Of a stretch of 53,117 bases of DNA, positions 988 to 50,952 are shown in pieces. The stretch comes from a virus. Lineage: Duplodnaviria; Caudoviricetes. The stretch spans positions 1 through 53,117 of IMG/VR virus record IMGVR_UViG_3300018074_000005. One strand, 5' to 3'. The first letter of the stretch is position 1. Every line of letters begins with the position of its first letter. The position numbers were made by a program, and so were the translations under genes. The notes beneath the pieces are model-generated. The model saw only the letters and a list, made by a program, of their open reading frames with translations, did not search any database and was not told the DNA's origin.

Positions 988-1266
988 GTGCGAATCCGAG
1001 AACGCAACGCGAAGTTGACGGTGACGCGCGCGAGTTTGGGGAAGATGGCCGACGCGCTCGACAGGACGCTTAGATCGCTCACCGCGGCGATGGAGTGCGC
1101 AGAGGATCGGCGCACGCTTCAAGAACTGGAGAGCAAGTTGCGTCAGGCGCGCGTGCTAAGCGAGCAGGTCAGGTCTGAGCTTGATTACAGCCGCTTCAAG
1201 CAGACGCATAGGGTGAAAGCGGCGTCAGCGCCGCCCGATAAAGAAGACCCGGACATTTCATTTTAG
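988..1266 (+). CDS. Hypothetical coiled-coil protein
   Basis: First ORF after the promoter; helical composition; fills the space before the next RBS-bearing gene. Confidence 0.55.
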   Translation: MRIRERNAKLTVTRASLGKMADALDRTLRSLTAAMECAEDRRTLQELESKLRQARVLSEQVRSELDYSRFKQTHRVKAASAPPDKEDPDISF

Positions 1267-1276
1267 GGGAGAAACA

Positions 1277-2413
1277 ATGAGTGACGACGGCGGCTACAAA
1301 GAAGACGCGCACATTAATCAGCTCGAAGATGAACAGCGTGAGGAACGCGAGCTAATCCGGCACGCCGGCGCGGTTCCCGCCGTTCAGCTTTCGCTGCCCC
1401 AGGAGATGTCGGTCCAGCAGATGGTCGAGCGCGTCGCGAAGATCAAAGCCATTGCCGAAGCCGTCATGGTTGAGAACGTGGACTACGGGACGATCCCCGG
1501 CACACCCAAACCGACGCTCTACAAAGCCGGTGCTGAAAAACTCTGCATGGCCTTCATGTTGGCACCGATGTGCGAGACTGTGGTCACGGCGCTGCCCGAG
1601 CCGGGACATCGCGAATACACCTCGACTTGTACGCTGGTGCATTATCCGAGCGGGCGCAAGATCGTGCGAGTGTCGGCATCGTGTTCGACGATGGAGGTCA
1701 AGTACCGCTGGCGACAAGCGGCGCGGAAATGTCCGAAGTGCGGCAAGCCGGCAATCATCAAGGGCTCTGAGCAATACGGCGGCGGCTGGGTGTGCTGGAG
1801 GAAGAGGGAAGGTTGTGGCGCGAAGTTTCCCGATGGCGATGTCACGATCGAAAAGCAGGTTGTCGGACGGGTTGCCAACGAGGACTTGGCCGACACTTAC
1901 AACACGGTGCGCAAGATGAACGAGAAGCGCGCGCTCGTAGCGGCATCGCTGATCGGTACTTGCGCGTCAATGGTTTACACCCAAGACCTCGAAGACGGGG
2001 GCAACCCCGATGAGGAAACCGGCGGCTCGGATGGTTCAGGCGCCCGCGCAGACAGTACCGACGGAACCAACTCCTCCGGGACATCCGCCGCCGCTACTGG
2101 AGAACCACCGGGCCGGCGTCGCGTCAGGGCAGCGGCTGCGCCTGCGGCAGCGAGTGCTCCGCCACCGGCTCAGCCGGTTGGGGAGCATATCGACCGCAGC
2201 ACATCACAGGAGCGGCCGGAGTCGGCGTCAGCGCCGCAAGGGGCGCGGCCGGGGGCGCTGTCGGTAGCGCAGGTGGAGGAGGCGAAGGGACTGGTGGCGA
2301 AGTCGGGGCAGAATGAAAAGTTCGTGCTCAAGATGTTTGGAGTGAAGGACTACAGCGAGCTGACGGCGGCGCAGGTCAAGGTGATGCGAAATAAGTGGGG
2401 AGATGCGCGATAA
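1277..2413 (+). CDS. Phage recombination/single-strand annealing-type protein with Zn ribbon (putative)
   Basis: RBS GGGGAG; DYGTIPGTPKPTLYKAGAEKL motif common in phage early genes; CPKCG...C...C; located upstream of a YqaJ exonuclease. Confidence 0.55.
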   Translation: MSDDGGYKEDAHINQLEDEQREERELIRHAGAVPAVQLSLPQEMSVQQMVERVAKIKAIAEAVMVENVDYGTIPGTPKPTLYKAGAEKLCMAFMLAPMCETVVTALPEPGHREYTSTCTLVHYPSGRKIVRVSASCSTMEVKYRWRQAARKCPKCGKPAIIKGSEQYGGGWVCWRKREGCGAKFPDGDVTIEKQVVGRVANEDLADTYNTVRKMNEKRALVAASLIGTCASMVYTQDLEDGGNPDEETGGSDGSGARADSTDGTNSSGTSAAATGEPPGRRRVRAAAAPAAASAPPPAQPVGEHIDRSTSQERPESASAPQGARPGALSVAQVEEAKGLVAKSGQNEKFVLKMFGVKDYSELTAAQVKVMRNKWGDAR

Positions 2414-2745
2414 TGGACTTCGACGAGCTGACGGCAATCGCGCGTAGCGAGCTGAAATGCGATCCGGCTGACCGCTGCGCAGAGGATCATACCTGCAACA
2501 ATCATCAACTGTTGGCCGCTGCGCTGATGTGCGTGAACAGCGCCGATAGACTGCAGGATTATGTCGCAAGCCAAGGCTCAGCGAGTGGGCGAGCAATGGC
2601 CTACGTTGCGATGCGCGCAGAGCTGGCCGTGATCGCGAAACAGCAACATGAGCACACCTACCATCAGGTATTCGATGCGCGCTGCCGAACCTACCGGCGC
2701 TGCGAGAAATGCGGCTACATGCCCGATGATCTGGCCTTAAGATGA
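2413..2745 (+). CDS. Hypothetical protein with Cys/His clusters
   Basis: ATG overlaps the upstream TAA; CxxxxxC...HxC and RCEKCG motifs. Confidence 0.55.
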   Translation: MDFDELTAIARSELKCDPADRCAEDHTCNNHQLLAAALMCVNSADRLQDYVASQGSASGRAMAYVAMRAELAVIAKQQHEHTYHQVFDARCRTYRRCEKCGYMPDDLALR

Positions 2746-2944
2746 TCAGCGACGAGCGAGTCTTGGATATCGCACTAAAGTTACAGCCCAAGATGAGCGT
2801 TCGACCGTTTCATGCTGTTTGACCATGACCCATTCGGACTCGTACTGTAGCGCTCTTTTATCCCGGCTTCCTTGAAAGGAACGAGGGCTTTGCACCGTAT
2901 ATGGTGCTTTACAAACGCTACTGTCTAGGGCGCACGGAGGATGC

Positions 2945-3792: not shown

Positions 3793-4425
3793 ATGAGCAT
3801 GAAAGTGATGGCTCGGGTATGGGAATACTCAAATGCGGCTGCGGGGACATTATTAGTCCTCTTGGCGATTGCAGACCGGGCCAATGACGAAGGCGAAGCG
3901 TCGCCTGTGGTTCATTCACTTGCGCTCAAATCGCGACTAAGCGAGCGACAAGTCCAGCGGGCACTAAGCGCCCTTCAAAAGATGGGTGAACTAATCATCC
4001 TTCGCGCGGGAGGCCGGGGTCCGAAAGACACGAATAACTACATCGTTAAGGTGGATGACAAATTGACGTCCATCAGGGATCCGTCAGTATATCGACCATA
4101 TGTACCACCTTCGGTGGATAATCTCCCTAGGACCCAAACCAACAGGGAGAAGATACCACCCATAGGGATATTCTCCCTAAGTGCCGATCGTAAGACATAC
4201 GCGATGCAGGTAGGGGTAGTTGATCCTGGGGTACAATTCGAGAAGTTCCGATTGCACCACGAAGCGCGCGGCAACCGGATGGCAAGTTGGGACAAGGCTT
4301 GGCAGTTGTGGTGCCGTAATGCGGTTGAGTTCGCTAAAAGCCGGGGAAATGCGGCGGCAGCGCCGGACCCGTTGGGCCGCTACCCTAAAGGCGAGGAATT
4401 GTGGCAGAGGACGCGCAGGACTTAG
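3793..4425 (+). CDS. Replication initiator (N-terminal HTH, C-terminal DnaT-like domain)
   Basis: LLVLLAIADRANDEG...LSERQVQRALSAL HTH; FEKFRLHH...WDKAWQLWCRNA C-terminus; lies directly upstream of DnaB. Confidence 0.8.
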   Translation: MSMKVMARVWEYSNAAAGTLLVLLAIADRANDEGEASPVVHSLALKSRLSERQVQRALSALQKMGELIILRAGGRGPKDTNNYIVKVDDKLTSIRDPSVYRPYVPPSVDNLPRTQTNREKIPPIGIFSLSADRKTYAMQVGVVDPGVQFEKFRLHHEARGNRMASWDKAWQLWCRNAVEFAKSRGNAAAAPDPLGRYPKGEELWQRTRRT

Positions 4426-6460: not shown

Positions 6461-6831
6461 CGAGACTGGGCGAAATGAAATCCTGCGTACTCGCGCTGCT
6501 GCTATGCGGCTGCTCAGCGACAGGCGCGATGGGCGGACTCGGCGGAGCCGGTTCCTACGGCGCGCGCAGCTTGGCGGCGAATCAGGCGTCAGCGCCGACA
6601 AGGCTGGCGCAGTGGCAAGCGGGTGGTGGAGCGGGTTCCTACGAGGAGCGGTCGCTACGATTGCAAGAGCAGGATATGCTTGAGCGCCATCGGCAGGCGG
6701 TTATGCATGACTTCGAGCTGCAACAGCTGCGCCAGGAGCTGCGCCGGCAGGAATCAGAGCGGCGTTTCCTGCCGCCGCCACCCAATTTGAGTTTGCCCTC
6801 ATACCCGCGCGGCTATCGGATGGACGACTGA
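6457..6831 (+). CDS. Putative lipoprotein
   Basis: MK-SCVLALLLCGC lipobox-like leader; ATGA overlap with the upstream gene. Confidence 0.55.
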   Translation: MTRLGEMKSCVLALLLCGCSATGAMGGLGGAGSYGARSLAANQASAPTRLAQWQAGGGAGSYEERSLRLQEQDMLERHRQAVMHDFELQQLRQELRRQESERRFLPPPPNLSLPSYPRGYRMDD

Positions 6832-11325: not shown

Positions 11326-12690
11326 TCATATTATTGCCTCGATCAGCTCGTCGAATACGTCGCCCTGAGTGATAGTCGAGATGGTCCCGTATTTCCGAAT
11401 GAGCAACCGCATAATCCGGTAATCGATCGTCCCCTCAGCCAGCGCATAGTAAGCCGTGACGGCGTTGCGCTGACCAATCCGATGCAACCGATCCGTCGCC
11501 TGCTGATGCGCTGCCGGCGTCCAACCGAGTTCAGCGAATAGCACATTGCTCGCCGCGGTCAGGTTAATCGACGTACCGGCCGCTTCAAGCGACCCAATGA
11601 AGAGGCGGCAGGCTGGGTTCTCCTGAAACAGGTCGATGTTCGCTTGGCGGGCCGCCGCAGATGATTCCATCCCGACCAAGCGCGCGGCGTTGGGGTAGCG
11701 AGCGCACAAAGCGCGCTGGATGGCCTGATGATAAGCGAAGACGACCAGCTTCTGATCCGACTCCAGGAAATCATCGATCCATGCGAACAGATGCGGGAGC
11801 TTGGCTTGTGCGGCAAGCTGTTTCAGATAGTTCACTCGGACCATGCGCTCGGCCCGGCCGGCACGCTTGGCGGCTGCCGTCCCACGGGTCTGGGCCAGCC
11901 ATTGAAGGAGGTTGCGCTCGGCCTCGCGATACTCCGTTAAGTCCGCACATTCAAGCGGCAGCTCGACATTGCGCCGCTCGGGGAGTTCGGGCATGACCTC
12001 AGCCTTGGTGCGGCCGAGCATGACGCGCGCGACCAGTAGGTCGTGCAATTCTTCGATGTTCGTGCAGCCGGTGGTGTCCCAATAGAAGCGAGTGACGCCA
12101 CGGCGCTGACGCGGATCCCAGCCGAAGAAGCGGTGCTGGGTCGGATTGCAGTAGCGGCGCAGAAACGGCCAATAACCGCCGAAGACGGATCCGAGCAAGC
12201 CCAGAATCTCAAGGGGCGCGACTAGCTCGGCTGGCCGGTTCAGGACTGGCGTGCCGGTCAGCATCCACACCCGAGGGAAGAAAGCGGCCATCCGGGCAGC
12301 ACCCCGCGTGCGCTTCGCCGCGCGGTTCTTGAGCGCTTGAGCCTCATCGAAGACGACTGCTTGCCAGTGTGCGCGCCGTATTGCGATGCCGGGGAAGTGG
12401 CGCATCAAAATGTCGTAGTTGAGGACCGTGATGTCGGCGCCGCCAATCGGATCGCTGGACGAAATGATCTGTACGGAGCGCCCAGGAACCCAGAGCCGAC
12501 ACTCGCGACGCCAATTCAGTTTGGCGGCGGCGCGGCAGACTATCAGCGCCGGATAGGCGTTAAGCGATTCAAGCGAGCGCAGCGCCTGGGCAGTCTTGCC
12601 CAAGCCCATCTCATCGGTGAGATAGGCGCGCGGATGATTGGTGAGGAATGCAACGCCGGTGTGCTGATAGCCGTAGAGTTCGGGCATCAA
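11326..12690 (-). CDS. SNF2-family helicase (HARP/SMARCAL1-like)
   Basis: LYGYQ, DEMGLGKT, VFDEAQ, LTGTPVLNRP, TSINLTAA, QATDRLHRIGQ. Confidence 0.95.
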   Translation of the reverse strand: MMPELYGYQHTGVAFLTNHPRAYLTDEMGLGKTAQALRSLESLNAYPALIVCRAAAKLNWRRECRLWVPGRSVQIISSSDPIGGADITVLNYDILMRHFPGIAIRRAHWQAVVFDEAQALKNRAAKRTRGAARMAAFFPRVWMLTGTPVLNRPAELVAPLEILGLLGSVFGGYWPFLRRYCNPTQHRFFGWDPRQRRGVTRFYWDTTGCTNIEELHDLLVARVMLGRTKAEVMPELPERRNVELPLECADLTEYREAERNLLQWLAQTRGTAAAKRAGRAERMVRVNYLKQLAAQAKLPHLFAWIDDFLESDQKLVVFAYHQAIQRALCARYPNAARLVGMESSAAARQANIDLFQENPACRLFIGSLEAAGTSINLTAASNVLFAELGWTPAAHQQATDRLHRIGQRNAVTAYYALAEGTIDYRIMRLLIRKYGTISTITQGDVFDELIEAII

Positions 12691-12981: not shown

Positions 12982-13037
12982 GGTAGCACCTCGATAGTCA
13001 TAGTGAAGGCGCAGGGCTAAAGGCGTCAGCGCCGGAA

Positions 13038-15117: not shown

Positions 15118-15281
15118 ACGCTGTCAAGCGATAATGCGATGCTAGCGCAAAGATTCCTGAAGAGAAAGCGAAGGCCCCTCCCCCACTTGACAGCACCCGG
15201 CCAGGGCGCGCTATACCATTGGCGGCGTCAACGCCGCCTAATTATAAATCGCGCCACCCTAACCTCCGCGCCCCCTCAACC

Positions 15282-17955: not shown

Positions 17956-17984
17956 ATGAGCGGCGGCGCTGACGCCGCATCCGC

Positions 17985-18014
17985 TTGACAAAGATCGCGC
18001 AGTGGGATTAAAAA
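17985..18014 (+). promoter_or_regulatory. Putative promoter of the late/packaging operon
   Basis: TTGACA (17985), then TTAAAAA 17-18 nt downstream; immediately preceded by a copy of the 14-bp motif. Confidence 0.5.
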
Positions 18015-18052: not shown

Positions 18053-18886
18053 ATGGCCAAACGAGGACGTCCCAAGAAAGCAGTCGCTGCACAAGCCCCC
18101 GTCGAAGTTGCTCCGCCGCAGCCCGAGCACGACGAGACTGCGCTCATCAAAGTATCGCGAGCTGACTTGCAGATGGACCTGCCTTATGCGGGCCGCGTCG
18201 GTTTGCAACTGCCCTCCAGTACGACCTTTGCGGAATGGCTTAAATTCGCCCAGCCGCTGAATTTCGTCCAGCAAGGCGTACTGTGGTGGGTAGGTGACTA
18301 TCTGAACTTCGGCGAGAAGAAATTCGGCGATACCTACTCGCAGGCATTAGGTGACTTGCCCTACGCCTACGACACGCTGGTGCGCTGCCGCTCGATCGCG
18401 AACAAAATCCCGATCAATGAGCGTCGCCAAGACCTGAGCTTCGCCCATCATGTGACGGTCGCCAAGCTGTCATCCAAGGAGCGCGCCAAGTGGCTGGAAT
18501 ACGCCGCCAACAACGGACTCAACATTAAAGAGCTGCGGGTTGCGATCAAAGCGGCGACCCGAGTCGCCGCACCCGATGGCAAGGTGGCGCCGCTGGACGT
18601 ATTGCTGGCGGAACTCGGCAAAGTAGCGGCGAGGACTGCTGAGCAGCTGGCGCCGGCCGCCTCGGCAATTGTCAAACTCGGTCGGGAACTTGTCGATGAA
18701 GGCATCGACCAGCCCGACATCGTGCGGGTGCTCAAGCAGGTGTTCGCCGGCCAGAAGGCGCTGGAGAAGTTCATCGAAGCCGCTGAGCCCGCACGCGATC
18801 ATCCCACGGGTTGGGATGAAGCTGATGCCGCTGATCCCAATGCCGCCGAAGTGAAAAAGGGCGAGGAAGCTGCGGCTGCTGAGTAG
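18053..18886 (+). CDS. LmbU-like DNA-binding regulator
   Basis: FAEW...WWVGDYLNFGEKKFGDTYSQA...RRQDLSFAHHVTVA...WLEYA...LNIKELR; N-terminal AT-hook-like KRGRPKK; RBS GAGGT. Confidence 0.7.
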   Translation: MAKRGRPKKAVAAQAPVEVAPPQPEHDETALIKVSRADLQMDLPYAGRVGLQLPSSTTFAEWLKFAQPLNFVQQGVLWWVGDYLNFGEKKFGDTYSQALGDLPYAYDTLVRCRSIANKIPINERRQDLSFAHHVTVAKLSSKERAKWLEYAANNGLNIKELRVAIKAATRVAAPDGKVAPLDVLLAELGKVAARTAEQLAPAASAIVKLGRELVDEGIDQPDIVRVLKQVFAGQKALEKFIEAAEPARDHPTGWDEADAADPNAAEVKKGEEAAAAE

Positions 18887-25376: not shown

Positions 25377-25506
25377 GGAGCGTACCGGGGCAAGCCTGAC
25401 CTGCTCGGCCTTGAGCGGGTAAGACTGTTTCGGCGCTTCAAGTTACAACCCCAGTGGGAGTTCCGGCGTCAGCGCCGGTTCTCCCGCTCAAACAAGGTGA
25501 AGACCG

Positions 25507-31183: not shown

Positions 31184-31791
31184 CGCTCAATGATATTGTA
31201 GCCGCTATTCAGAGCGGTATGAGCGATCCGATGGGTACGGATATTTTTGCTCTGGGAGGTTTACTGAACCCGGATAACCCGCTGGCCGGAATGTTCCAGA
31301 TCGCCGGTATGACGGGTCAGGGCATCACGGACGCGCAGATGATGGAGTGGGCTAACGCAGTTCAACAGCGCCAAACGGCGGGCACTGATGTGGCGGCCGA
31401 TCCGGCGCAGATGATGGCAAAGGTTCAGGGCTTTCAACAGCCTTTAAATCGGAACCTCACTGCGAATGTGGCGAATTTCGTCAATGCGCAACTCGCCGCA
31501 CGCGGCATGGCGACCTCGCCCGGTCAGACGGACTACGCGATGGCGCAGGCCATCTCGCCGTTCATCTTTCAGAATCAGCAAGAGGCCGAGAAATTGGCCA
31601 TGTACGGCACGTCGCTCCCCATGCAGATGCAGCCGTTCGCATACCCGACGTTTCAGACTTCGGGGGTGGCGTCAACGCCGGGTGGCAGCGGCACGACACC
31701 GAGCAGCGTCTTTGATCCGAACATGCCCAATCCGTGGGCGAATCCGAGTAGCACCGGATTCGATCCACTTAGTTGGCTTGCCAACCTTTAG
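31180..31791 (+). CDS. Putative DNA-transfer/ejection protein
   Basis: RBS GGAGG; Gln/Met-rich; NAQLAARGMATSPG motif. Confidence 0.6.
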   Translation: MTLNDIVAAIQSGMSDPMGTDIFALGGLLNPDNPLAGMFQIAGMTGQGITDAQMMEWANAVQQRQTAGTDVAADPAQMMAKVQGFQQPLNRNLTANVANFVNAQLAARGMATSPGQTDYAMAQAISPFIFQNQQEAEKLAMYGTSLPMQMQPFAYPTFQTSGVASTPGGSGTTPSSVFDPNMPNPWANPSSTGFDPLSWLANL

Positions 31792-33310: not shown

Positions 33311-36300
33311 TGGCCAAGAATATCAGCGGCTGGCGGATCGAGGCGGGGCCGCGTGCGGCCGCTCCCTACCGTGTGCGGTCAAGTGAACGCGCGCGACCGC
33401 GACTGGATCAGTGGAAGATTGAAGCCGCACCCGCGACACCGATCGGGCCACCAACATGGCGCGAGCAGGTTGAGCAACGCGCCCGGGCCTCCGGCGTCGC
33501 GATTGGCTCCGAACAAGAGGCCCTTGGCCGGCGCGCCTTGCTTGGCGGAGCTGTATTCGGTTTGGGTGGCGAATCCATCGGTGAAGAAATCGGACTCACT
33601 GCGGAGGAAAAACTTGCGGGTGAAAAACCGGGGCCGCTACGGCGTGAGGCGGCTAGAATCGCCGGTGCTGGAATTGCCGGTGCGCTCACGCCGCTACCCG
33701 GCGTCGGGACACTGGCGCGAGCAGGCTGGACTGCCGCCGGTGCAGGGGCGGCCGATGTTGCCGGTCTGGTCACTGATAATCCGATAATTAAACTCGCAGC
33801 TGCCTTGGGGTTGCCACTATTAGGCTTGCGTGCTCTCAATCGTGTCGCTGATCTCAAAGCTCCCAAGGTAGCTGAAGCGCCACCGGCGCCTACCGTGGGC
33901 GCACGGGGCGTTTTCAGGGTGCCACCCAAGGAACCTATCGAGTTGAGCGAAGAAGTGTCGCCGCCACAGTTTGAGCCGCGCGCGATTCCGCCCGAGGCAG
34001 TGGCGATGGCGGCCAAGCCACTGGACTTGTCGGCGAAGTCAATGGCCTACCGCGATGGTTACATGCACGGACGCGGCCATCCGGCGTTGACGCCGACAAG
34101 TGAAGCTGCATGGCGGGAGTCTTTAGCTGATGCTGGGCACGAACCCAAAGATATCGCGCAATGGGTGGTCGGCCACAAAGAGGGCAACAAGTTATTCAAG
34201 GGGATGGCTATCCCGCGCACGGCGGAAACCGCGCCCAAACCGCCAGCGCCAATTGAACTGACCGAAGAGATGGTCGCGCCGGTTGAGGCCAAGTCGCCGC
34301 CCATCAAGCCAACACTGGAAGGTCAAGCCATCCGCAAAGAACAGGCCGACCGCGCCAGCCAGTGGATGAAGGTCGAATCGGGTGCCGACCTCATCCCCGA
34401 CCCCGACAGCGTGCCCAATGTGCCCGGAATGGTCTATTACGCCAAACCGGAAGCACTCAAAATCGACCCCGAACGCTTCCAGTACAAACTCGGCACCGAC
34501 CTGCGCACTGGCGCCGGTCGCGTAATGCGCAAAGCCAAGGTCTGGAATGAGGAAGCCGCAGGTGTCATCACCGCATGGCGGGACAAGATCGGCGACCTAT
34601 ATGTTGTCAACGGGCATCACCGGCTTGCGCTCTACAAGCAGCTTGCTAAAGAGGGCAAGGAGATACCGCCACGGTTGCGCGTGCAGGTACTCAATGAAGG
34701 CGAGAGCTTCCCCGGCGCGCTCGCCAATGGCATCGACGAATCCGAAGCCAAGGTTCGCGGTGCCCTCCAGAGTATCTTCGAGCAGCACGGCACGCCAGTT
34801 GATGCCGCTACCATCATCCGTGAGAAGGGTATCACGCCTGCGCAGCTTGAAGAGATCGGCATGGACCTCGGCGACAAGACGGCTGAGCAGGCCGTCGCGA
34901 TCGCCCGCTTGGATGATTTTCTGTTCCGGGAACTCCAGTTAGGTCGCCTTGATGAAGGTCGTGCGGCCATGATCGGTCGTGAAGTGCCTGAGCGTGCCGG
35001 CCAGATTGCAGCGTACAAGCTGATGAAAAAACTGGAGGATGAGGAAGGCCGCGTCGATCCCAGGCGGTTTGAGAAGGTCATCCGCTTTACCAAGGGTGCC
35101 GAGACGGTTGGCGAACAAGGTGGACTGTTCACGCCCGCGCAGATGCAGAGTTCGTTGGCAATCGAGAAGGCCGAAATCGCCGAATACTTGGAGCGCAAAT
35201 TGCGCACCGAGAAGCGCGTATTTGGAGGCGCAGTCCGCCAGCAGGGTCTGCTCGAAGCGGGCGGAACGGCAGTTGATGTCGCGCGCGGCAAGCAGATCAG
35301 TGCTGATGCGGGCACATTGATGAGCGCGCTGGAGACCTTTGGTTACAACCCGGAAACGAAAACCAGCGAAGTTCTCAACGGCTTGGCGCGCGAGCTGCAC
35401 GGCGCATCCAAGGCGAAGCGCGCACAGATTCTGAGCGGCGCATACGAAGGGGCGATCGTGGCGCTGCAAGAAGACCTAGCGGCGCAAAACATTCAAGTCG
35501 GAAAACTCGCAGAGACGGGGGTGGCTAGGCCGCCCGAGGGTGGGCTGTTTGGCCGCGGCGGGGGTGAGGGTACAAACCTTTCGGGCGGCCTACTCCCTGG
35601 AATTGAACGAATACCAGCGGCAATCGAGGCAATCGGCAAATCGCCGCAGTTGCAGCGCGCGCGCTATGAACTGATGGCGAAGTTCGCGCCAGATAAAATC
35701 AGTGAAGCCGCGCGTGCGTTTCACGGCAATATGCGCACAACGCTGGCGGAAGGTGCCGCCAGCGCCTATGTCTCGCGGGAGTGGATCGCGCCGCTGCACA
35801 GCTACTTTCAGGAGCTGGCCAAGAGCGTTCCCACAAAGCAGATTCTTAAGGACTTCTACGGCAGCATCCAGCGTGGCGACGCCTTCCCCGACTACCTGAA
35901 AGACTTGGAGTCGTGGCGCGAGCCGATCCGAGATGCCTTCGATCATCGGTTCAATCTCATCAACAGCCTGCGCGATGGCTGGCTGCGCTACCGGCAGAAC
36001 TACCTGCCTAACCTGTTCAAAGACCCCAAAGCAGTCGAAGCGTACATTGAGTCGGTGCAGCCGCGCACTATCCGTGGCACGTCGGGCTTCTTTAAGCGCC
36101 AAGAGTTCAGCTTCGAGGAGCTGATCGATAAATTTGAGTCCGCCTTCGAGAATCCGGCCGATACGATCTTTGCTCGCTTGCTCGACGAAGACCGCTTTTA
36201 CATGGGCCAAAAGCTGTTCCAGCAGGGCACCGACAATGGGACGATTAAACTCACCCAAGGCGACGCTCCGCGCCATTGGGATCGGATCAACGATCGCATT

Positions 36301-38088
36301 GCGGAAGTAGTCCAGACGGACCCTGAGACCGGCACGCGCAAACTTACAGGCGTGTACTACGCGCAAAAAGATATGGCGCGACTGATGAACAACTTCTTCG
36401 CACCAAGTCCGGACCAGTCGATTCTCTACCGCTGGGTGCATACGCCGATGGCACAGGCCAACGCACTGCGTGTCGCCGTGGGCGGCTTCCACTACTTGTT
36501 CGAGACCGCATCGGCGATGGCGATGGAACCCGGCATTGACTTCGCCGATGCATTTGGCGCGCTGTTCGAGGGGCGACTGCGTGATGCTGCGATTGCCACA
36601 GGACGGCTCACAAAAGATGTGCTGACGGCACCGGCCAAACCCTACCAATATTACAAGATCGGCAAAGCGGCGCAGAAGTCGTTGCTGAGCGGCGAGCCGG
36701 GCGACGTTGCGCGCGCGGTCATCGAAGCCGGCGGTCGCTTCACCAGCGAGCGTGGGCTGGACTCGCTCGCCCATTCGTCGGAAGCCATCATTCGCCAGAT
36801 GCTGCCGCCCAGCGTACCAGAGCGCATGATCACGGCCATCTCGAAGCCGCTGATGAAATACTATGTGCCGCGGATCAAGATCGGCGCGTTTTATAAAGTG
36901 GCGGAGCGGCAACTTCAAGAAGCGGCTAACAAGGGCGTCGAGGTAGACGCAGGGCAGTACCGGCGTATTTTGCAGGATAGCTGGGAGCACGTCGACAACA
37001 CATTGGGCCAGATGGTCCGGGACAATCTGGCGTTTTCACCCGGCATGAAAGGCACGTTGGGTCTGGGGATCAACTTTCCAGGCTGGAACATCGGCTCCTA
37101 CCGGCTACTGTACAACGCGCACAAAGCGGCCGCGAAGCTGCTGACTGGACAAGCGGGGAAAGTGGGCACGCTGGAAAAGCTCTCGCTGGGACAGGTTGCC
37201 GGCACATTCATGATGGGAGCAGTCGTGAACATACTGACGCAGTACGCGCTGACGGGCAAAGGCCCGCAAGGACCGCTCGATCTATTGGCTCCGCAGGACG
37301 GCGGAACGCTCCCAAGTGGCAAGCCGAGCCGGGTCATCTGGCCGAGCTATATCTGGGGCTGGATCAAGGCGCACACGTCGCCGGTGGCCACCATCGGCAA
37401 CAAGCTGTCGATCGTGATGGACGTGCTACGCGACTTCGTGAGCAACAAAAACTTTCGCGGTATTGAGATTTACGACCCCACGCGCGCATGGCCGGTTAAG
37501 GCGGGGCAATTTGTGGGTTACGAAGCAAAGCAGGCGCTGACGCCGTTTGCGGTGGGCGCGTATCAACGTGCGACGGAGAAAGGTCCGGCTGGCATCGCAA
37601 TGTCGGCGCTAGGCATCAATCCGGCCTCGGCGCAGATCGGCCAGAGCGCCGATGAAAGCCTGATGCAGACTTACTTGGCGCGACGCTATTCGAACGTCCG
37701 CACGGCGGAACAAGCCGAGCGTGGTGACATCAAGCGCAAGTTCTTGCAGAGCTGGCGCGGAGGAAAGCGCCCCGAAGCCGTGGCGCTCATGAAGGATGCG
37801 CTCACGGGGCGGCAGGTCACCTTCAGGCAGGCTGAACAATGGCGCCGCGAAGCAGTCGAACATCCCGATGCAGTGCAGTTCAAGCGCCTGACACCGGAGG
37901 AGGCCATCGAAGTCTACACGGTCGCGGGGCCGGAGAATCGCCGGCGCTATCGCTCACTGCTGGTGGGCAAGGTGTTCGGTGCCGGCGGAGAGAAGTTGCG
38001 CAAGCTGCGCGATAGCGGCCAACTCCAGCGGCTCAAGGACATGCTGCGGCAGGCGCCGACAGTTCCGGCGTCAGCGCCGGTTAGCTGA
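33310..38088 (+). CDS. Large internal virion/polyvalent protein with a ParB-like domain
   Basis: 1592 aa; LKIDPERFQYK...YVVNGHHRLAL ParB/Srx motif; C-terminal NKNFRGIEIYD segment resembling large-polyvalent-protein domains. Confidence 0.75.
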   Translation: MAKNISGWRIEAGPRAAAPYRVRSSERARPRLDQWKIEAAPATPIGPPTWREQVEQRARASGVAIGSEQEALGRRALLGGAVFGLGGESIGEEIGLTAEEKLAGEKPGPLRREAARIAGAGIAGALTPLPGVGTLARAGWTAAGAGAADVAGLVTDNPIIKLAAALGLPLLGLRALNRVADLKAPKVAEAPPAPTVGARGVFRVPPKEPIELSEEVSPPQFEPRAIPPEAVAMAAKPLDLSAKSMAYRDGYMHGRGHPALTPTSEAAWRESLADAGHEPKDIAQWVVGHKEGNKLFKGMAIPRTAETAPKPPAPIELTEEMVAPVEAKSPPIKPTLEGQAIRKEQADRASQWMKVESGADLIPDPDSVPNVPGMVYYAKPEALKIDPERFQYKLGTDLRTGAGRVMRKAKVWNEEAAGVITAWRDKIGDLYVVNGHHRLALYKQLAKEGKEIPPRLRVQVLNEGESFPGALANGIDESEAKVRGALQSIFEQHGTPVDAATIIREKGITPAQLEEIGMDLGDKTAEQAVAIARLDDFLFRELQLGRLDEGRAAMIGREVPERAGQIAAYKLMKKLEDEEGRVDPRRFEKVIRFTKGAETVGEQGGLFTPAQMQSSLAIEKAEIAEYLERKLRTEKRVFGGAVRQQGLLEAGGTAVDVARGKQISADAGTLMSALETFGYNPETKTSEVLNGLARELHGASKAKRAQILSGAYEGAIVALQEDLAAQNIQVGKLAETGVARPPEGGLFGRGGGEGTNLSGGLLPGIERIPAAIEAIGKSPQLQRARYELMAKFAPDKISEAARAFHGNMRTTLAEGAASAYVSREWIAPLHSYFQELAKSVPTKQILKDFYGSIQRGDAFPDYLKDLESWREPIRDAFDHRFNLINSLRDGWLRYRQNYLPNLFKDPKAVEAYIESVQPRTIRGTSGFFKRQEFSFEELIDKFESAFENPADTIFARLLDEDRFYMGQKLFQQGTDNGTIKLTQGDAPRHWDRINDRIAEVVQTDPETGTRKLTGVYYAQKDMARLMNNFFAPSPDQSILYRWVHTPMAQANALRVAVGGFHYLFETASAMAMEPGIDFADAFGALFEGRLRDAAIATGRLTKDVLTAPAKPYQYYKIGKAAQKSLLSGEPGDVARAVIEAGGRFTSERGLDSLAHSSEAIIRQMLPPSVPERMITAISKPLMKYYVPRIKIGAFYKVAERQLQEAANKGVEVDAGQYRRILQDSWEHVDNTLGQMVRDNLAFSPGMKGTLGLGINFPGWNIGSYRLLYNAHKAAAKLLTGQAGKVGTLEKLSLGQVAGTFMMGAVVNILTQYALTGKGPQGPLDLLAPQDGGTLPSGKPSRVIWPSYIWGWIKAHTSPVATIGNKLSIVMDVLRDFVSNKNFRGIEIYDPTRAWPVKAGQFVGYEAKQALTPFAVGAYQRATEKGPAGIAMSALGINPASAQIGQSADESLMQTYLARRYSNVRTAEQAERGDIKRKFLQSWRGGKRPEAVALMKDALTGRQVTFRQAEQWRREAVEHPDAVQFKRLTPEEAIEVYTVAGPENRRRYRSLLVGKVFGAGGEKLRKLRDSGQLQRLKDMLRQAPTVPASAPVS

Positions 38089-43916: not shown

Positions 43917-45653
43917 ATGCTTGAGCCTTTCGTGCAAAGCGACTTTAGTCTTGGGCTCGTCGCGGTCGTAGGTCGCTACCAGCAACCGCCCAACTCAGTT
44001 TTTCGTCTCTCAAACTTCTTCTACCGCACGCCCGGCGACCTTGAAGTGGTCGATGGCAGCCTAATCGTTACTACCCGCGTCGCACCCGGCCCGACCAACT
44101 CCATCGTCATAATCGCGCCGTTTACGCCGGTCGGCTCAGCTGCGAAGATTCTGGCGCTCCAGTTCAGCGGTGCACAGTACGACCTGATCGACGTAAGCGG
44201 GGCGACTTACAACGCCTCGCTGGCTACGCTGGCGAGCACCTACGCAACGCCTGACCTCGTAATGTTCGCCGGCAAACTCGTGGTCGTGGCGGGTCTGTCA
44301 GTGGTGCCGCAGCTTTGGAACGGGGCGGCGCTGACGCCGATTACCAATAGCTGGACTGCGGCCGGCTACATCCCGCTGTGGCAAGCGGCCCTGCCTGTGC
44401 AGGTCGGCGATGTGATTCAGCCCACGCCTACCAATGGCTTCTTTTACATCTGCGAGCAGGCCGGACTGACGGGCGCTGCGCTACCGGCCTTTCCGGTGGT
44501 AGCAGGAACCGTGGTAGACAACAATGTGATCTGGCGCTTCACCGGCCCCACGACACCAGTGACAGTGCCCAAAGCCGCACACGCCTTCAACCATCTCGAT
44601 TCACTATGGTTATGGGGCACGGATGCCGCAGAGGGGCCGTTTGACGGCCCGAGCTCACTGCGTATGAGCGACACCGGCAACCCCAATTCGTACAACCCCA
44701 TCAACCAGGACTTCATCGGCGTCGGCGATGGGCAGACCGCACAAGGCGGTGCCAGCATGTCGATGGGCGAGTTGGGAATCGCCAGTACACCGACGTTAGT
44801 CCTGTTCAAGGATCGCTCGACCTATGAGATCGTGGGGTCTTTCCCGGTCGCGACTGCGAGCAAGGCCAAGACTGATAAGGGCTGCATCGCGGCGCGCTCG
44901 ATTCAGTTCATCGCCGAGCTCGGCGGCGTCATCCGACTGACGCATCAAGGCTTCGCGCTCTATACGGGGCCGGGCCAGACCGGCGACCAACTCCTAAGTG
45001 AGGTCATCCAGGACTACATTTTCCCCAACAGCTCAGACGTGGCCGCGATCGACTTCACCAACGCCAGTGTGGCGAAGTCAGGCCAGATGGACAACCCGCT
45101 GATGTACCTCTGCGCCGTGCCGATTATCGGGGGCAGCGGCAACCTGACGCGCGTGTTTATCTATTCCATCTTACAGAAGGTGTGGGCCATCGCGGATCTG
45201 CCCTTCAACATCACGGCGCTCAATTTCGTACAGATCCCGAATGTAGCGGCAAAGTTGCTGCTCGGGGACAAGACCGGCGGCAACGTGCGGCGGTGGATGG
45301 CTAACGATAGCGACTTTGATGGCGCGGCGATCTCATGGTCCGTTAGGGGACCGCTGATGCGGGACAAGCGGGGAGCGCCGGTCTACTTCCGGCGGGTGAC
45401 AGTGCAGACCTCCGGCGGTACGCCCACAATCACGAGCGCAACGCTCGACTACGACGACATCGCAACCGCACGTCCCAAAACGCAGGCCGTCACGACAGTG
45501 GCGCCCTATCCGGTGAGTCCGCCGGTCAGTCTATCCCTGGGCATCACGACGCGTGGCGCGCAGATCACCGTCAACGGCAAGGGCAAGACTAAACTTGAGG
45601 CGCTTGAGTGGCATGGTGTGCGCAAGCGGCCGCGTCAGATTGCCGGTGTCTAA
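43917..45653 (+). CDS. Tail nozzle/tubular protein B-like (beta-propeller)
   Basis: About 580 aa; LRMSDTGNPNSY, LVLFKDRSTY, KGCIAARSI motifs typical of podovirus stabilisation proteins. Confidence 0.75.
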   Translation: MLEPFVQSDFSLGLVAVVGRYQQPPNSVFRLSNFFYRTPGDLEVVDGSLIVTTRVAPGPTNSIVIIAPFTPVGSAAKILALQFSGAQYDLIDVSGATYNASLATLASTYATPDLVMFAGKLVVVAGLSVVPQLWNGAALTPITNSWTAAGYIPLWQAALPVQVGDVIQPTPTNGFFYICEQAGLTGAALPAFPVVAGTVVDNNVIWRFTGPTTPVTVPKAAHAFNHLDSLWLWGTDAAEGPFDGPSSLRMSDTGNPNSYNPINQDFIGVGDGQTAQGGASMSMGELGIASTPTLVLFKDRSTYEIVGSFPVATASKAKTDKGCIAARSIQFIAELGGVIRLTHQGFALYTGPGQTGDQLLSEVIQDYIFPNSSDVAAIDFTNASVAKSGQMDNPLMYLCAVPIIGGSGNLTRVFIYSILQKVWAIADLPFNITALNFVQIPNVAAKLLLGDKTGGNVRRWMANDSDFDGAAISWSVRGPLMRDKRGAPVYFRRVTVQTSGGTPTITSATLDYDDIATARPKTQAVTTVAPYPVSPPVSLSLGITTRGAQITVNGKGKTKLEALEWHGVRKRPRQIAGV

Positions 45654-46310: not shown

Positions 46311-46823
46311 ATGGCAATTCTGGGCCTCGACGGTACGCCGATAAAGTATCCGGCTTTTCGCTGCGCGATCGATGTGCAGGGCGAAATTGCGGCTATTTTC
46401 ATGTCCACCGACGCGAACATCCCTGATCAGCGCGCGCCGACCGGATGCTTTTGGGTCGATATCGCGGTTGAGGACTTTCATCGTATCAAGGCGGATCCCC
46501 ATTCCTTCACGCTCGAAGCAGGCGCGCGCGTCGCGACCGTCAAGGCGAAGCAGACGTTGACGCTGAGCGTGAATCGCCACCGCTTCAAGGCGGATGGCGT
46601 TGACGCCGCCAAGCTGACTTGGGACACGACCGAGCCGGTGACCATTTGGGCCAACAACGCCTCTTTGGACGGCGCCTACACTTCGCCCGACACCTACCAG
46701 CCACCCAAAGACGAAAAGACCGGCCTGCCGCGTGTGGGGCCGGTTGTGCTGTGGATTCGGGATGTGCGGCATGTCTCGAATCGGGTAACGGTGGTGTTCG
46801 TAGACCCTGCGGAGGCCGTATGA
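46311..46823 (+). CDS. Hypothetical protein
   Basis: In operon; stop overlaps the next ATG. Confidence 0.6.
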   Translation: MAILGLDGTPIKYPAFRCAIDVQGEIAAIFMSTDANIPDQRAPTGCFWVDIAVEDFHRIKADPHSFTLEAGARVATVKAKQTLTLSVNRHRFKADGVDAAKLTWDTTEPVTIWANNASLDGAYTSPDTYQPPKDEKTGLPRVGPVVLWIRDVRHVSNRVTVVFVDPAEAV

Positions 46824-47615: not shown

Positions 47616-48330
47616 GCATTTGCTATCGAATCTCCACCGCGACCTTGACGCGTTGCGTGCGGCTGCGGCTGTCGAGCTGATACATCGCTCGACTCTCGCG
47701 GTCGATGACTTAATTGATGATTCGCCCAAGCGCGGCGCACGCGAGGCCCTGCATGTCCGCTACTCGCCGGTGATGGCGGGTGCTGTGGCGATGTGGCTCA
47801 ACTGCATGGCGCAAAAACTGCTCGATGACAATGCCCGCGCGCGCCAAGACCTGCGGATACTGGCTAACCGGCTGGCGCTGGGGGAAGTACTGCAGGAGCG
47901 CTGGAGCAAACAAGAGGGCAAGACGCCGCCGGCGACTTGGCAGGAGATCGCGGATTTGGATACCGGCGCGCTGTTCGATTTTACGCTGGCGATGGGCCGT
48001 AAGCCTAGTCCCGCGTTCGCCTATCCGTTGGCGCGACTGCGGCATGGACTCGATGATATCGAAGATCTGCTGGACCCCGAAGGCGATCAGCGCGACGTGG
48101 CGCAGGGGACACCGACACTCCCGACGGTGTTCACCGAAGCTAAGGAGCACGCGGGACTGGTTGCGGCGATTCCGCGGGCGCTGGCGTATCTTGAAACTGA
48201 GCTGGAACGTGTTAAGGTGTACGTCAAGCGCAAGGGAATGCTGAGGCCATTTGTCGATGACTTCGAGCGACAACTGCGAGGATACCAGAAAGTCGGCGTC
48301 AGCGCCGACCGGGACCGCAGCCGACCTTGA
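47413..48330 (+). CDS. Polyprenyl synthetase (trans-isoprenyl diphosphate synthase) family protein
   Basis: KGVRPALV, AAAVELIH.STLAVDDLIDDSPKRG (first DDxxD), LDDIED (second DDxxD), DVAQGTPTLP; RBS GAGGA. Confidence 0.85.
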   Translation: MGANLSGSISEVKRVYGSWIQHVFSHVRQLSQPQDQRLREAVHWHLYTMDDSKGVRPALVGACYVADEHLLSNLHRDLDALRAAAAVELIHRSTLAVDDLIDDSPKRGAREALHVRYSPVMAGAVAMWLNCMAQKLLDDNARARQDLRILANRLALGEVLQERWSKQEGKTPPATWQEIADLDTGALFDFTLAMGRKPSPAFAYPLARLRHGLDDIEDLLDPEGDQRDVAQGTPTLPTVFTEAKEHAGLVAAIPRALAYLETELERVKVYVKRKGMLRPFVDDFERQLRGYQKVGVSADRDRSRP

Positions 48331-48892: not shown

Positions 48893-49258
48893 ATGCACGC
48901 ACGGAATCTGGCTGTGCTCGCGCTGCTATCGGCACTGGCACTGGTAAGTACGCAGGCTTGGGCGGCCGGCGGCGTCAGCGCCGGAACCTCGGTGGGGTCG
49001 GTCACGGCTGTAACGCTGCTCAGCGCCAATGCCGGTCGTCACGGGCTGATGTGTCAGAACAACGGCGCTAATCAGGTCAGTGCCGCCTTCGGCACCACAG
49101 CGACGGCTACCAACGGCTTTTTGCTCAATTCCGCAGGCGGACTGCTCAAGCTGCCCGATGCTGAAACGCCGGGCGTGATTGGCAATGCGATGCCGCTGAC
49201 GGCGCTTTCGGCGCTCTCGGTCTCCGGCACCAATGCCGTTGTGTGCTTGGAGTGGTAG
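48893..49258 (+). CDS. Small beta protein with signal peptide (paralog family A)
   Basis: MHARNLAVLALLSALALVSTQAWA-AGGVSAG...QNNGAN...NGF. Confidence 0.75.
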   Translation: MHARNLAVLALLSALALVSTQAWAAGGVSAGTSVGSVTAVTLLSANAGRHGLMCQNNGANQVSAAFGTTATATNGFLLNSAGGLLKLPDAETPGVIGNAMPLTALSALSVSGTNAVVCLEW

Positions 49259-49260
49259 CC

Positions 49261-50289
49261 ATGAAACGCCTACGCTTACTATTCATCGCCCTTGTTCTCG
49301 TTGCCATTCCTCTGTTGGTCGGTCTGGCCTACCCGCCGGCATTCGCATTCCTCAACGGTGGAAACCCGATCAGCCAAAGCGTTGTTCCGCTCAACACCGA
49401 TACCGGCGTGCCGACCAAAGTGGGGCATGTTTGGTATGTGGACCAGATTAACGGGAACGATACGAACAGCGGCTTTAGCCAGAGCGCCCCGTTCGCGACG
49501 ATTGGCAAGGGTCTGACCTCAGCGACCAATGGCGCGGGCGACATCATCATCGTCTACCCGGGCACCTATGCTGAGAATCTGAGCGTCACCAAGGATTACA
49601 TCACGATGATCGGGGCGATTTTGGGCGGGTACGCACGCCCCGATGTGGTACCGGCTGCGGGGATCGCGCTCACCGTCTCGACAGGAAGGGGATTCACCGC
49701 ACGGCATATGCGCTTTGCGTCGGTGGATAACTCCGACACGGTGCTCCAGAACACCAGTGGATTTCGCTATGAAGACGACGTGTTCGACGGCAACGCGCTT
49801 CAAGTGACCAAAGGAAATTTGCGCATCGTCGGCGGACCCGGCGGGACGGCTTCTGAGGGTAAGGTACTTAACTCGTACATCCGTGGTGGCGGAGCAGCGG
49901 GCATTCTCTTTCAGCATCGACTCGCCATAGATGGCGGCGAGGGCAGCACTGATAACGAGATCGCTCATTGTCGCTTCGTCGATAACGTGGCGAGCGATCT
50001 AAAGAGCGTCGTGAACACCAACGGCGGCGGCGCAGGTATCTACATAAACCTGAGCGTTCACGATAACCAGTTCATGACCAGCGGTGCCTCCTACAAGTAC
50101 ATTAACTTCGCAGCCGGCGCGGCGGGTGACTTGGCAGCCAACTCCTGCCTGATCGCAAATAATTACTTCGCTGACGAAGCGCTGACCGGCGGGACCGGCA
50201 ATCAGATCGATCTGGGCGCACAGCCCAAGGCGCACTTTGCGGGCAACTTCGACGACATCGCCGTCGTCAACGGGACGACCTTCAACTAG
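49261..50289 (+). CDS. Beta-helix (pectin-lyase-like) protein with signal peptide
   Basis: Leader ending AFA; VWYVD..NGNDTNSG....PFATI...GDIIIVYPGTYAE. Confidence 0.8.
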   Translation: MKRLRLLFIALVLVAIPLLVGLAYPPAFAFLNGGNPISQSVVPLNTDTGVPTKVGHVWYVDQINGNDTNSGFSQSAPFATIGKGLTSATNGAGDIIIVYPGTYAENLSVTKDYITMIGAILGGYARPDVVPAAGIALTVSTGRGFTARHMRFASVDNSDTVLQNTSGFRYEDDVFDGNALQVTKGNLRIVGGPGGTASEGKVLNSYIRGGGAAGILFQHRLAIDGGEGSTDNEIAHCRFVDNVASDLKSVVNTNGGGAGIYINLSVHDNQFMTSGASYKYINFAAGAAGDLAANSCLIANNYFADEALTGGTGNQIDLGAQPKAHFAGNFDDIAVVNGTTFN

Positions 50290-50304
50290 AACTAGGAGCG
50301 CGCC

Positions 50305-50589
50305 GTGCCCGATCCTGTACCGGCGACCCTAGCCCCGACACCACCGGCGATTGATACGGGTCGCAGCGTTGTGCGCGATGTTTTGGCGTTCTGCATCACG
50401 GCGGGCTTTTTCGGGTTCATCTTCATGATCGTCTACCTCAAGTGGGTGGACGATAAGATTTTCTCGATTCTGATGGCGCTGATTGCGATCGAGACCAACG
50501 TGCTTCAGTATTATTTCGGAAGTTCGATGGGTAGCGCCAGCAAGGATGCCTTGCTCGGACGCATGGCCAAAAACGGAGGGCAGTCATAA
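50305..50589 (+). CDS. Two-TM holin-like protein
   Basis: Two TM segments and a YYFGSSMGS.SKD motif. Confidence 0.7.
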   Translation: MPDPVPATLAPTPPAIDTGRSVVRDVLAFCITAGFFGFIFMIVYLKWVDDKIFSILMALIAIETNVLQYYFGSSMGSASKDALLGRMAKNGGQS

Positions 50590-50634
50590 TGACTTCCGTA
50601 CAGGCCCCCGCACCCGCAACTGCGAGTCCGTAAG

Positions 50635-50952
50635 ATGGCAGGCGGCGTCAGCGCCGGGTTCACGCTGAACACGGCGACCTCGACGGCGCTGTTGCCGGTC
50701 AACAACCGTCGCAAGTGGCTGTTCATCCAAAACAACGGCGCGAACGTTGTCATCATCGCATGCGGCACGAATAACGGCGCTTCCGCAGTCTCACCCGGCA
50801 ATGGCTTTCAGATCGCAGCCGGCGGTTCCTTGATTCTGCCGCCGGTAGTAGGGGCGCTGCCCGCCGGCGTTGGTCTGACGGGTGCCCCGACCACCGACAT
50901 CGCCGGGATTGCGATTGGGGGCGCCTCGGATGTGGTTGTGCTGGAAAACTGA
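50635..50952 (+). CDS. Small beta protein without signal peptide (paralog family A)
   Basis: MAGGVSAG...NNRRKWLFIQNNGAN...NGFQIAAGGSL. Confidence 0.7.
   Translation: MAGGVSAGFTLNTATSTALLPVNNRRKWLFIQNNGANVVIIACGTNNGASAVSPGNGFQIAAGGSLILPPVVGALPAGVGLTGAPTTDIAGIAIGGASDVVVLEN

Follow-up and report, generated by a model that had tools for sequence, protein, structure and literature searches.

The window analysed here is the whole of the IMG/VR virus record IMGVR_UViG_3300018074_000005, a contig of 53,117 bp with a GC content of 59.7%. The record is classed as linear in IMG/VR and has a CheckV completeness estimate of 65%, so that genes may be missing from it. The element under study is a 14-bp near-palindrome, CGGCGTCARCGCCG, consisting of a 12-mer core (GGCGTCARCGCC) plus a flanking C and G, which recurs in both orientations from one end of the record to the other. 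The phage is present in two public runs, both labelled as freshwater sediment metagenome and either of which may have been the source of the record; no RNA run was among those listed. Its recognizable replication and DNA functions comprise a YqaJ-type exonuclease, a replication-initiator-like helix-turn-helix (HTH) protein, DnaB, an SNF2 helicase and two methyltransferases (a D12 methyltransferase and an N6_N4 DNA methyltransferase), and its structural and lysis functions comprise a large terminase, an SU10-like portal, a major capsid protein, a tail fibre and an M15 endolysin. About 40 of the 59 main open reading frames (ORFs) had no family match in Pfam, PHROG and NCBIfam scans. Against GenBank phages, neither a megablast search with 24 kb of the record nor a tblastn search with the capsid protein returned a match, and TerL matched only at ~25% identity.

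The 12-mer core occurs as 18 exact copies, 12 on the plus strand and six on the minus strand, which is the strand split given in the initial annotation of this sequence; its count of at least 18 copies holds for the core, while the full 14-mer is represented by 13 exact copies (nine plus, four minus) against 0.02 expected. Across 100 dinucleotide-preserving shuffles the core appeared 0.08 times on average and never more than once, with none of the 100 reaching 18, in keeping with the earlier estimate that well under one copy would be found by chance. Twenty-three sites lie within one mismatch of the 14-mer and 34 within two, compared to 3.62 expected and 10 in the most extreme shuffle, a few palindrome-like sites being counted on both strands. 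The enrichment exceeds 200-fold and holds under both dinucleotide and synonymous-codon controls: in 300 synonymous-codon shuffles of the 59 ORFs, the core averaged 2.75 copies (maximum 6) and the 14-mer 2.23 (maximum 5), values which include the never-shuffled copies located between genes or in ORF overlaps. Because the codon shuffles give far lower counts, amino-acid content does not explain the copy number, and the proposal that the motif is selected at the nucleotide level is borne out. The 18 copies of the core are located as follows.

1220..1233, plus strand: exact 14-mer with a TCAG centre, in ORF 988-1266 and 50 bp upstream of the next start (1277)
2223..2236, plus strand: exact 14-mer, in ORF 1277-2413
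6584..6597, plus strand: exact 12-mer core with A at outer position 1, in ORF 6361-6831
13021..13034, plus strand: exact core with A at outer position 1, in a weakly coding stretch with a doubtful minus-strand ORF (12754-13185)
15223..15236, plus strand: exact 14-mer with a TCAA centre, a perfect inverted repeat, non-coding, 46 bp before the ATG at 15282
16329..16342, minus strand: exact 14-mer, at codons 10-15 of the N6_N4 DNA methyltransferase gene (16300-17955)
17964..17977, minus strand: exact 14-mer, intergenic, ending 6 bp before the -35 element TTGACA (17984-17989) of the promoter of an LmbU-like gene
22598..22611, plus strand: exact 14-mer, in ORF 22372-22962
25464..25477, plus strand: exact 14-mer, intergenic, 30 bp before the ATG at 25507
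31667..31680, plus strand: exact core with a TCAA centre and T at an outer position, in ORF 31114-31791
34082..34095, minus strand: exact 14-mer with a TCAA centre, antisense in the gene for a 1592-aa protein
37532..37545, minus strand: exact core, antisense in the gene for the 1592-aa protein
38066..38079, plus strand: exact 14-mer, in the final codons of the gene for the 1592-aa protein (stop codon 38086-38088)
44326..44339, minus strand: exact 14-mer, antisense in ORF 43863-45653
46595..46608, minus strand: exact core with a TCAA centre, in the minus-strand ORF 46278-46892
48294..48307, plus strand: exact 14-mer, at the C-terminal end of the polyprenyl-synthase-like ORF 47302-48330 and 77 bp before the next start
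48970..48983, plus strand: exact 14-mer, in ORF 48842-49258
50643..50656, plus strand: exact 14-mer, at codons 3-7 of ORF 50635-50952

Five further sites are one-mismatch variants.

4352..4365, plus strand: variant with a GCAG centre
12101..12114, minus strand: variant
21178..21191, minus strand: variant
27552..27565, minus strand: variant
28753..28766, minus strand: variant with a CCAA centre

Fifteen of the 18 copies fall inside predicted ORFs and three (15223, 17964 and 25464) are non-coding after the start codons were re-read. Two frames and both orientations are represented among the coding copies, which yield peptides of the A-S-A-P, G-V-S-A, A-L-T-P and G-A-D-A types, so that the reported use of different frames and the occurrence between genes both stand; relative to the local gene, 12 copies are in the sense and six in the antisense direction. 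The copies are spaced somewhat more evenly than random placement would give (coefficient of variation 0.64 versus 0.93), with 3.75% of 10,000 random placements being equally even. The stretch 6597-12101 is free of copies, and the largest gap, 6.4 kb, is by our own arithmetic not unusual for 18 sites in 53 kb. This agrees with the earlier remark that the 6.8-11.2 kb region lacks the motif, but the description of that region as rich in insertion sequences finds no support, as no transposase family was matched by any ORF scanned in it. Within 100 bp upstream of start codons there are five copies compared to 2.1 expected (P = 0.05), a mild enrichment. The two copies which had been placed beside promoters, 15223 and 17964, do adjoin promoters by consensus match, and only six strong sigma-70-like matches are present genome-wide. 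Copy 15223-15236 is situated at a predicted transcript start, just past a promoter-like TTGACA (15187-15192) and TATACC (15212-15217), in surroundings that resemble a divergent control region. Copy 31667 lies within a low-complexity, poorly conserved linker of ORF 31114-31791 that is unalignable with its homologues; this ORF was the only one in which the motif could be compared as an in-frame insertion, the relatives being too distant at the other genes.

Sequence outside the 14-mer is not conserved between copies. The longest identity shared by any pair is 21 bp, between copies 25464 and 38066 (25459-25479 and 38061-38081; GTTCC, the 14-mer and TT). Within the motif, 18 of the 29 words of the form GGCG-N4-CGCC have TCAG, TCAA or their complements at the centre and the other 11 are scattered, so that the centre belongs to the signal. 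The TCAG centre of 14 of the 18 copies leaves one asymmetric inner pair, giving an imperfect palindrome, and the four copies with a TCAA centre are perfect inverted repeats with a 2-bp spacer. Twelve near-invariant positions amount to ~23 bits of information, compared to the ~12.5 bits which by our own arithmetic suffice for locating 18 sites in 53 kb; such a surplus would be expected if the sites must also be distinguished from host DNA.

Palindromes of 6 bp are strongly avoided in this genome, with CTCGAG found 0 times versus 16.5 expected, CGTACG once versus 11.3, GGGCCC once versus 8.9, ACCGGT three times versus 22.3, GTCGAC four times versus 14.6 and CTGCAG five times versus 18.3. Such avoidance is a signature of long exposure to restriction systems. 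A fully symmetric site made from two CGGCGTC halves would contain GTCGAC, and there is a single such site, at 4730; we infer that selection against restriction sites may explain why a TCAG rather than a TCGA centre prevails.

The palindromic form of the motif also permits a reading in which the copies act as hairpins in RNA or single-stranded DNA, serving as stabilizers, pause or processing signals, or priming signals. Each copy is able to fold into a 5-7-bp GC stem closed by a 4-nt loop, with energies of -11 to -15 kcal/mol over 26 nt and z scores down to -5.2, copy 25464 caps an imperfect inverted repeat of greater length (25453-25488) with 16-nt arms, and the five copies found shortly upstream of start codons are suitably placed for such signals. 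However, a conserved loop would be UCAG in 12 of the predicted transcripts and CUGA in the other six, which also disfavours the RNA tetraloop signal proposed initially, and a function independent of the loop predicts a variable centre, at odds with the centre retained in the 18 words. In two of the five contexts that were folded, the minimum-energy structure is in another register. None of the 18 downstream flanks contains a T run, so the copies do not have the GC-rich hairpin followed by a U run of an intrinsic terminator; terminator-like sites in the 12.5-18.5 kb region show no excess (4 versus 4.2 expected), and the Rfam scan recovered only a tRNA. We regard a hairpin function as very improbable. 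A reading on duplex DNA is favoured over one on RNA because the two orientations of the motif constitute one and the same site on a duplex, which is not the case on RNA.

The distribution of the motif beyond this record was followed in related phages and in possible hosts. Counting in relatives, as had been suggested, gave four core copies in 1.23 Mb across 80 IMG/VR loci surrounding homologous capsid genes (43-59% identity). Metagenomes contained 48 homologues of the capsid protein; 18 metagenome loci, which include the closest relatives found (61-72% identity, ~156 kb by our own sum), held no core copy. These 18 loci came from a scan with a capsid alignment, a scan with the single capsid protein having found none. 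Four complete or near-complete relatives of 54-58 kb carry 0, 0, 1 and 0 core copies, and an equivalent array of another sequence is likewise absent from them, the top dispersed 12-mer reaching 3-4 copies in each versus 14 in this phage. The exact 14-mer was found in at least 120 unrelated viral stretches totalling 1.15 Mb, nearly always as a single copy, and among the matches listed none had more than two core copies. The array is private to this phage. Only 10 of its 59 ORFs are shared with the four relatives (tblastn, E <= 1e-4), and for this reason a binder cannot be pinpointed by subtraction of gene content.

A single relative was present in the species-genome collection, a 5.8-kb contig binned into a metagenome-assembled genome titled uncultured Terracidiphilus sp. 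(Acidobacteriota), and this genome contains 10 core copies in 4.7 Mb. Across an even draw of 401 Acidobacteriota genomes, among them the unpublished G153, G025 and G050 with unremarkable counts, the highest count was 82 core copies in 6.5 Mb, i.e., 12.6 per Mb versus 339 per Mb in the phage. This bears on the possibility that the motif is a signature of the host genome, such as a highly iterated palindrome or an uptake-type or repair-type signal, shared by a phage evolving in that host. The initial annotation had named an equal density in the host as grounds for discarding a phage system; none of the 401 genomes approaches the phage density, in a sample confined to the Acidobacteriota. The lack of the motif in relatives from other samples is as expected if it tracks one host, and across the 401 genomes the motif generally outnumbers its reversed control, which gives it a compositional head start. 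Set against this are the low densities themselves, the fact that only 5 of the 82 copies in the top genome extend to the 14-mer, and the low copy numbers in the unrelated viral stretches. HIP1 would be a model, being a short GC-rich palindrome-like word that is dense inside coding sequence in several frames; its extended form has the same GGCG...CGCC arms. HIP1 is, however, a property of host chromosomes, whereas the present array is limited to one phage. A host signature is accordingly judged to be improbable. In the top genome (G400), the 82 core copies compare to three of the reversed control, and this genome seems to have its own, different repeated context which contains the core. A string search of the literature with the motif sequences returned, among the matches listed, titles on primers or unrelated genes; we know of no bacterial iterated motif of this sequence, and no title among those matches concerns one.

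If the copies are protein-binding sites, a candidate binder is encoded in the phage itself. The features which bear on the choice of binder are these.

17984..18013, plus strand: sigma-70-like promoter of the LmbU-like gene (TTGACA, spacer of 18-19 nt, TAAAAT), by consensus match only
18053..18886, plus strand: LmbU-family protein of 277 aa, the candidate binder, with a ParB/Noc-type HTH core at residues ~75-174
16300-17955: N6_N4 DNA methyltransferase gene (Pfam), product of 551 aa
3706-4425: replication-initiator-like HTH protein (family match)
6074-6460: Vsr-like DUF559 protein (Pfam, E 1e-7)
6852-7211: HTH_3 protein (family match)

The LmbU-like gene was called as ORF 18002-18886, but its true start is probably the ATG at 18053, giving a protein of 277 aa. 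It forms part of the terminase module, preceding the large terminase gene by two ORFs, and lies directly downstream of the N6_N4 methyltransferase gene, which is bracketed by motif copies 16329 and 17964. The intervening ORF 18892-19776, between the LmbU-like gene and TerL, had no family match and no informative Atlas neighbour, and is not a paralogue of the LmbU-like protein. The LmbU-like protein matches NCBIfam NF038070 (LmbU_fam_TF) with an E-value of 2.1e-28 over profile positions 1-136 of 171, and on this sequence comparison it is a relative of the family and not a curated member. A HMMER search of 1.84 billion representatives returned 6,696 relatives at E <= 1e-3, which share a core of ~120 aa and none of which exceeds 44% identity. 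Among 43 aligned relatives, 14 are fused to a methyltransferase domain (MT-A70 in nine, N6_N4_Mtase in three, Dam in one and D12 in one), and further domain matches were to DUF1016_N (seven), HTH_ParB of Pfam (five) and DUF3102 (four).

The AF2 model of the protein has a confident helical core (pLDDT >90), with residues 1-50 modelled as disordered. VIA-align with model residues 75-174 detected Noc bound to its NBS site (7ol9) at Z 11.8 with a root-mean-square deviation of 2.3 Å over 99 aa, ParB (7bnr) at Z 11.1, the Noc DNA-binding domain with NBS (6y93) at Z 11.0, with 100 of 105 aa aligned, and Spo0J-parS (4umk) at Z 10.7. The top 12 rows were all ParB or Noc (Z 9.3-11.8), the next family following at 8.2, and the structural neighbours in the Atlas were a cluster named LmbU and clusters named ParB HTH/MT-A70. 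The N-terminal CTPase domain of ParB is absent as judged by PF02195 (ParB_N), which went unmatched in a six-frame scan of the record at E <= 0.01, and no ATPase of the ParA/CbiA type was found among 86 ORFs scanned against Pfam, in a record that is perhaps incomplete. The LmbU protein of Streptomyces lincolnensis is described as binding the palindrome CGCCGGCG via its HTH, with R101 being essential, and as homodimerizing and acting as a repressor at its own promoter; in that study the HTH was modelled on Spo0J (PMC6510168). The target of that protein has the same CGCC and GGCG tetramers as the phage motif, but with the half-sites reversed (CGCC-GGCG in LmbU, GGCG-N4-CGCC in the phage), and LmbU has a few promoter targets rather than a genome-wide set, whereas the present relative is phage-borne in a non-actinomycete setting.

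Two more observations on this protein may be due to chance: residues ~190-245 have a weak similarity to a single BurrH (TALE-like) repeat (E 0.001), and the C-terminal part has a weak structural likeness to the 8-kDa domain of DNA polymerase beta (Z ~4.4). Separately, in an unrelated 74.6-kb viral contig (L257), a perfect 16-bp palindrome (9907-9922), single-copy within 20 kb, lies 43 bp upstream of an LmbU/ParB-HTH-like gene and presumably differs from canonical parS at two positions.

The reading that best fits these data is that the copies form a dispersed array of duplex-DNA binding sites with the phage's own LmbU/ParB-HTH protein as leading candidate binder; we put this joint claim forward tentatively, as possible but somewhat short of an even chance. 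The proposal of a binding-site array made in the initial annotation is retained in the form of protein sites on duplex DNA, the binding itself being something we infer, and the LmbU-like candidate named there proves to have a match to the LmbU family, a modelled ParB/Noc-like core and a motif copy abutting its promoter. The ribbon-helix-helix protein that had been named as another candidate drops out, there being none in Pfam or NCBIfam among the ORFs scanned.

A third candidate named initially, the ParB-like domain of the 1592-aa protein (33310-38088), is not supported as the binder. Its PHROG match, to a ParB-like family, is weak (E 7e-6), there is neither a PDB sequence match nor a match to Pfam ParB_N, and its match to DUF3536 (E 0.009) is at chance level. 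Its residues 340-660 recur in phage proteins of 960-2750 aa with varied effector domains, including GGDEF, lytic transglycosylase, histidine phosphatase, 2H phosphoesterase/ligase, Zeta toxin and acetyltransferase, a combination of shared region and varied effectors which we take to be the pattern of polyvalent virion proteins. From these similarities it is probably a polyvalent protein of the virion that is injected. None of the four complete relatives encodes a homologue of it.

Several results weigh against assigning the array to the LmbU-like protein. Its NF038070 score of 99.4 bits is under the curated cut-off of 125; by VIA-align's own note, chance Z scores reach ~13 for helical folds; and Foldseek gave no match at E <= 1e-3 (E >= 0.38), though its top rows were ParB, Spo0J and Noc. 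A homologue of the candidate is absent from the four complete relatives, which also lack an array, but this is weak evidence given the few ORFs that have homologues there. Among 48 viral loci that encode homologues (26-42% identity), examined for co-variation with 22 random loci (L100-L121) as the control, none has five or more dispersed copies of any 12-mer, and inverted repeats are not enriched upstream of the homologous genes (20 versus 19.7 expected for 6+6 arms and 6 versus 4.7 for 7+7 arms). Because the domain is widespread and often fused to methyltransferases, it could serve to target DNA in general instead of being a site-specific regulator. A recognizable promoter adjoins only two of the 18 copies, and the imperfect palindrome of the dominant TCAG-centred site is unusual for ParB-type sites. 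The link of the array to the LmbU-like protein is circumstantial.

The same points leave room for a different binder, either a host factor that is recruited or titrated by the sites or another phage protein, such as the HTH_3 protein, the HTH protein at 3706-4425 or an unannotated ORF. The evidence for a duplex site fits any binder, phages that bear homologues of the candidate lack arrays, and both the large number of ORFs without a family match and the possible incompleteness of the record would accommodate a protein of this kind. No other ORF, however, combines a fold of a palindrome-binding type with a motif copy at its own promoter, and the remaining HTH matches are weak (E 1e-5 to 5e-3); we therefore consider another binder to be unlikely.

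The methyltransferase context brings in a further reading, in which the motif is the target of a phage enzyme: the N6_N4 methyltransferase, perhaps guided by the LmbU/ParB-HTH protein, a nicking enzyme as in T5 or phiKMV-like phages, or the Vsr-like DUF559 endonuclease, in which last case biased mismatch repair would make the enzyme's own target accumulate. It is consistent with the methyltransferase fusions of the candidate's domain and the position of the candidate gene immediately after a methyltransferase gene flanked by two copies, with the presence of the DUF559 protein, and with the adenine in the centre of the motif on each strand. The occurrence of copies on both strands is unlike strand-confined targets. 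To our knowledge, methylation and nicking targets are not normally enriched 200-fold, and those known are shorter or one-stranded; we also know of no precedent for biased repair of a 12-14-bp context. An enzyme target is thus also rated as distinctly unlikely.

Under the preferred reading, of a duplex-DNA array bound by the LmbU-like protein, the copies would be high-affinity sites for a sequence-specific protein, probably bound as a dimer. The sites would be spread fairly evenly and placed where the encoded protein tolerates them, i.e., in linkers, in untranslated leaders and at the ends of genes. The likeliest protein to bind them would be the 277-aa LmbU-family protein, with a ParB/Noc-like HTH core in the absence of a ParB-type CTPase domain, whose two DNA-binding domains in the dimer would each read one CGGCGY half-site, the half-site centres being ~9 bp apart. 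The copy beside its own promoter would provide for autoregulation of the LmbU-like gene, and the copy at the predicted start of the rightward 15.2-kb transcript would provide for control of that promoter. The remaining ~16-20 sites may mark the phage chromosome or organize it, or lower or raise transcription along its length, after the fashion of KorB operators on RK2 or Noc sites on the Bacillus chromosome. That a CTPase-free DNA-binding protein and ~20 coding-embedded sites together make up a system for marking the phage chromosome is possible but unlikely. In such a system, sites of ~23 bits could let the protein pick phage DNA out within a host cell containing several Mb of DNA, and the protein, whose gene lies in the terminase module, might organize or protect the phage DNA or feed it to the packaging machinery.

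Among known systems, the array would work most like KorB, which binds 12 operators on RP4 (PMC7314908) and silences at long range (PMC11790492), or like Noc with 16-bp NBS sites scattered around the chromosome (PMC8429893, PMC4331003). The likeness to KorB-OB of the IncP plasmids RK2/RP4 lies in a mobile element of ~50-60 kb having a dozen or more palindromic sites and a global regulator of the ParB HTH family that acts in part at promoter-distant sites. The operators of KorB are mostly intergenic, AT-rich and perfectly palindromic, whereas the phage site is GC-rich, has an asymmetric centre and is mainly found in ORFs; in KorB there are, moreover, a CTPase clamp domain of the ParB type and, as partner, the ParA protein IncC, neither of which was found in this phage. 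The Noc-NBS system of Bacillus subtilis provides the best structural match of the candidate core and has a short, palindromic and dispersed site, but Noc, a protein of the cell that functions in division-site selection, has a CTPase domain and a membrane-targeting helix, and nothing here suggests that role. With the CTPase domain and ParA not found, the array falls outside the ParB clamp systems.

The stoperators of Cluster A mycobacteriophages offer a parallel in phages of this size: L5 gp71 and Bxb1 gp69 are HTH proteins described as binding 24-34 sites across a ~50-kb phage genome, each site being an asymmetric 13 bp, mainly intergenic and oriented a single way with respect to transcription (PMC3029335). 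The shared feature is one short site repeated across a ~50-kb genome. The term stoperator-like, which had been applied to the present array, nevertheless does not suit it, as its site is a 14-bp near-palindrome that is largely intragenic and occurs in both orientations at 12:6. Stoperators are also given with a derived consensus in 16 Cluster A phages (PMC3029335), whereas the relatives of this phage lack an equivalent array.

Dispersed arrays of a single site are rare on mobile elements, and each well-studied case has yielded a distinct principle: long-range silencing by a sliding clamp in KorB, the blocking of transcript elongation by stoperators and the tethering of DNA to the membrane by Noc. 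The present array differs in lying almost wholly in coding sequence and in being private to one lineage of a large family of uncultured soil and sediment phages. The candidate is a pared-down DNA-binding domain of ParB type, from the LmbU family; this domain is found in thousands of phage clusters, often fused to a methyltransferase, and has no known function in phages. If the proposed binding is true, this widespread domain would gain a first phage role and a defined target site, and there would be a simple sequence handle on how a virus marks its own chromosome. If the array does serve to mark the chromosome, the protein would amount to a phage equivalent of Noc or KorB that lacks the CTPase, and a family of regulators otherwise known only from antibiotic gene clusters would gain a genome-wide role in a virus.

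Several other features of the record were noted. ARAGORN called a tRNA-Ala(cgc) at 8113-8200 on the minus strand and a tRNA-Met at 19788-19865 on the plus strand; tRNA-Met was the sole Rfam match at the gathering score, which makes the 88-nt tRNA-Ala call doubtful. The polyprenyl-synthase-like ORF 47302-48330 (Pfam, E 1e-13) is an unusual gene for a phage, and its nearest NCBIfam model is an encapsulin cargo polyprenyl transferase, with a score far under the cut-off of that model. Paired promoter-like sites at 951-980 on the plus strand and 15077-15106 on the minus strand have identical hexamers and spacing (TTGACA, 18 nt, TATTGT) and may be early promoters. The minus-strand ORF 13471-14160 contains tandem repeats of 12-bp period (13540-13740; units such as GGCGGCCCCTGC and GGCGTCCCATGC) which encode a tetrapeptide-repeat protein, and a similar repeat with a 12-bp period is found in another IMG/VR contig, L233, which also carries an LmbU-like homologue.

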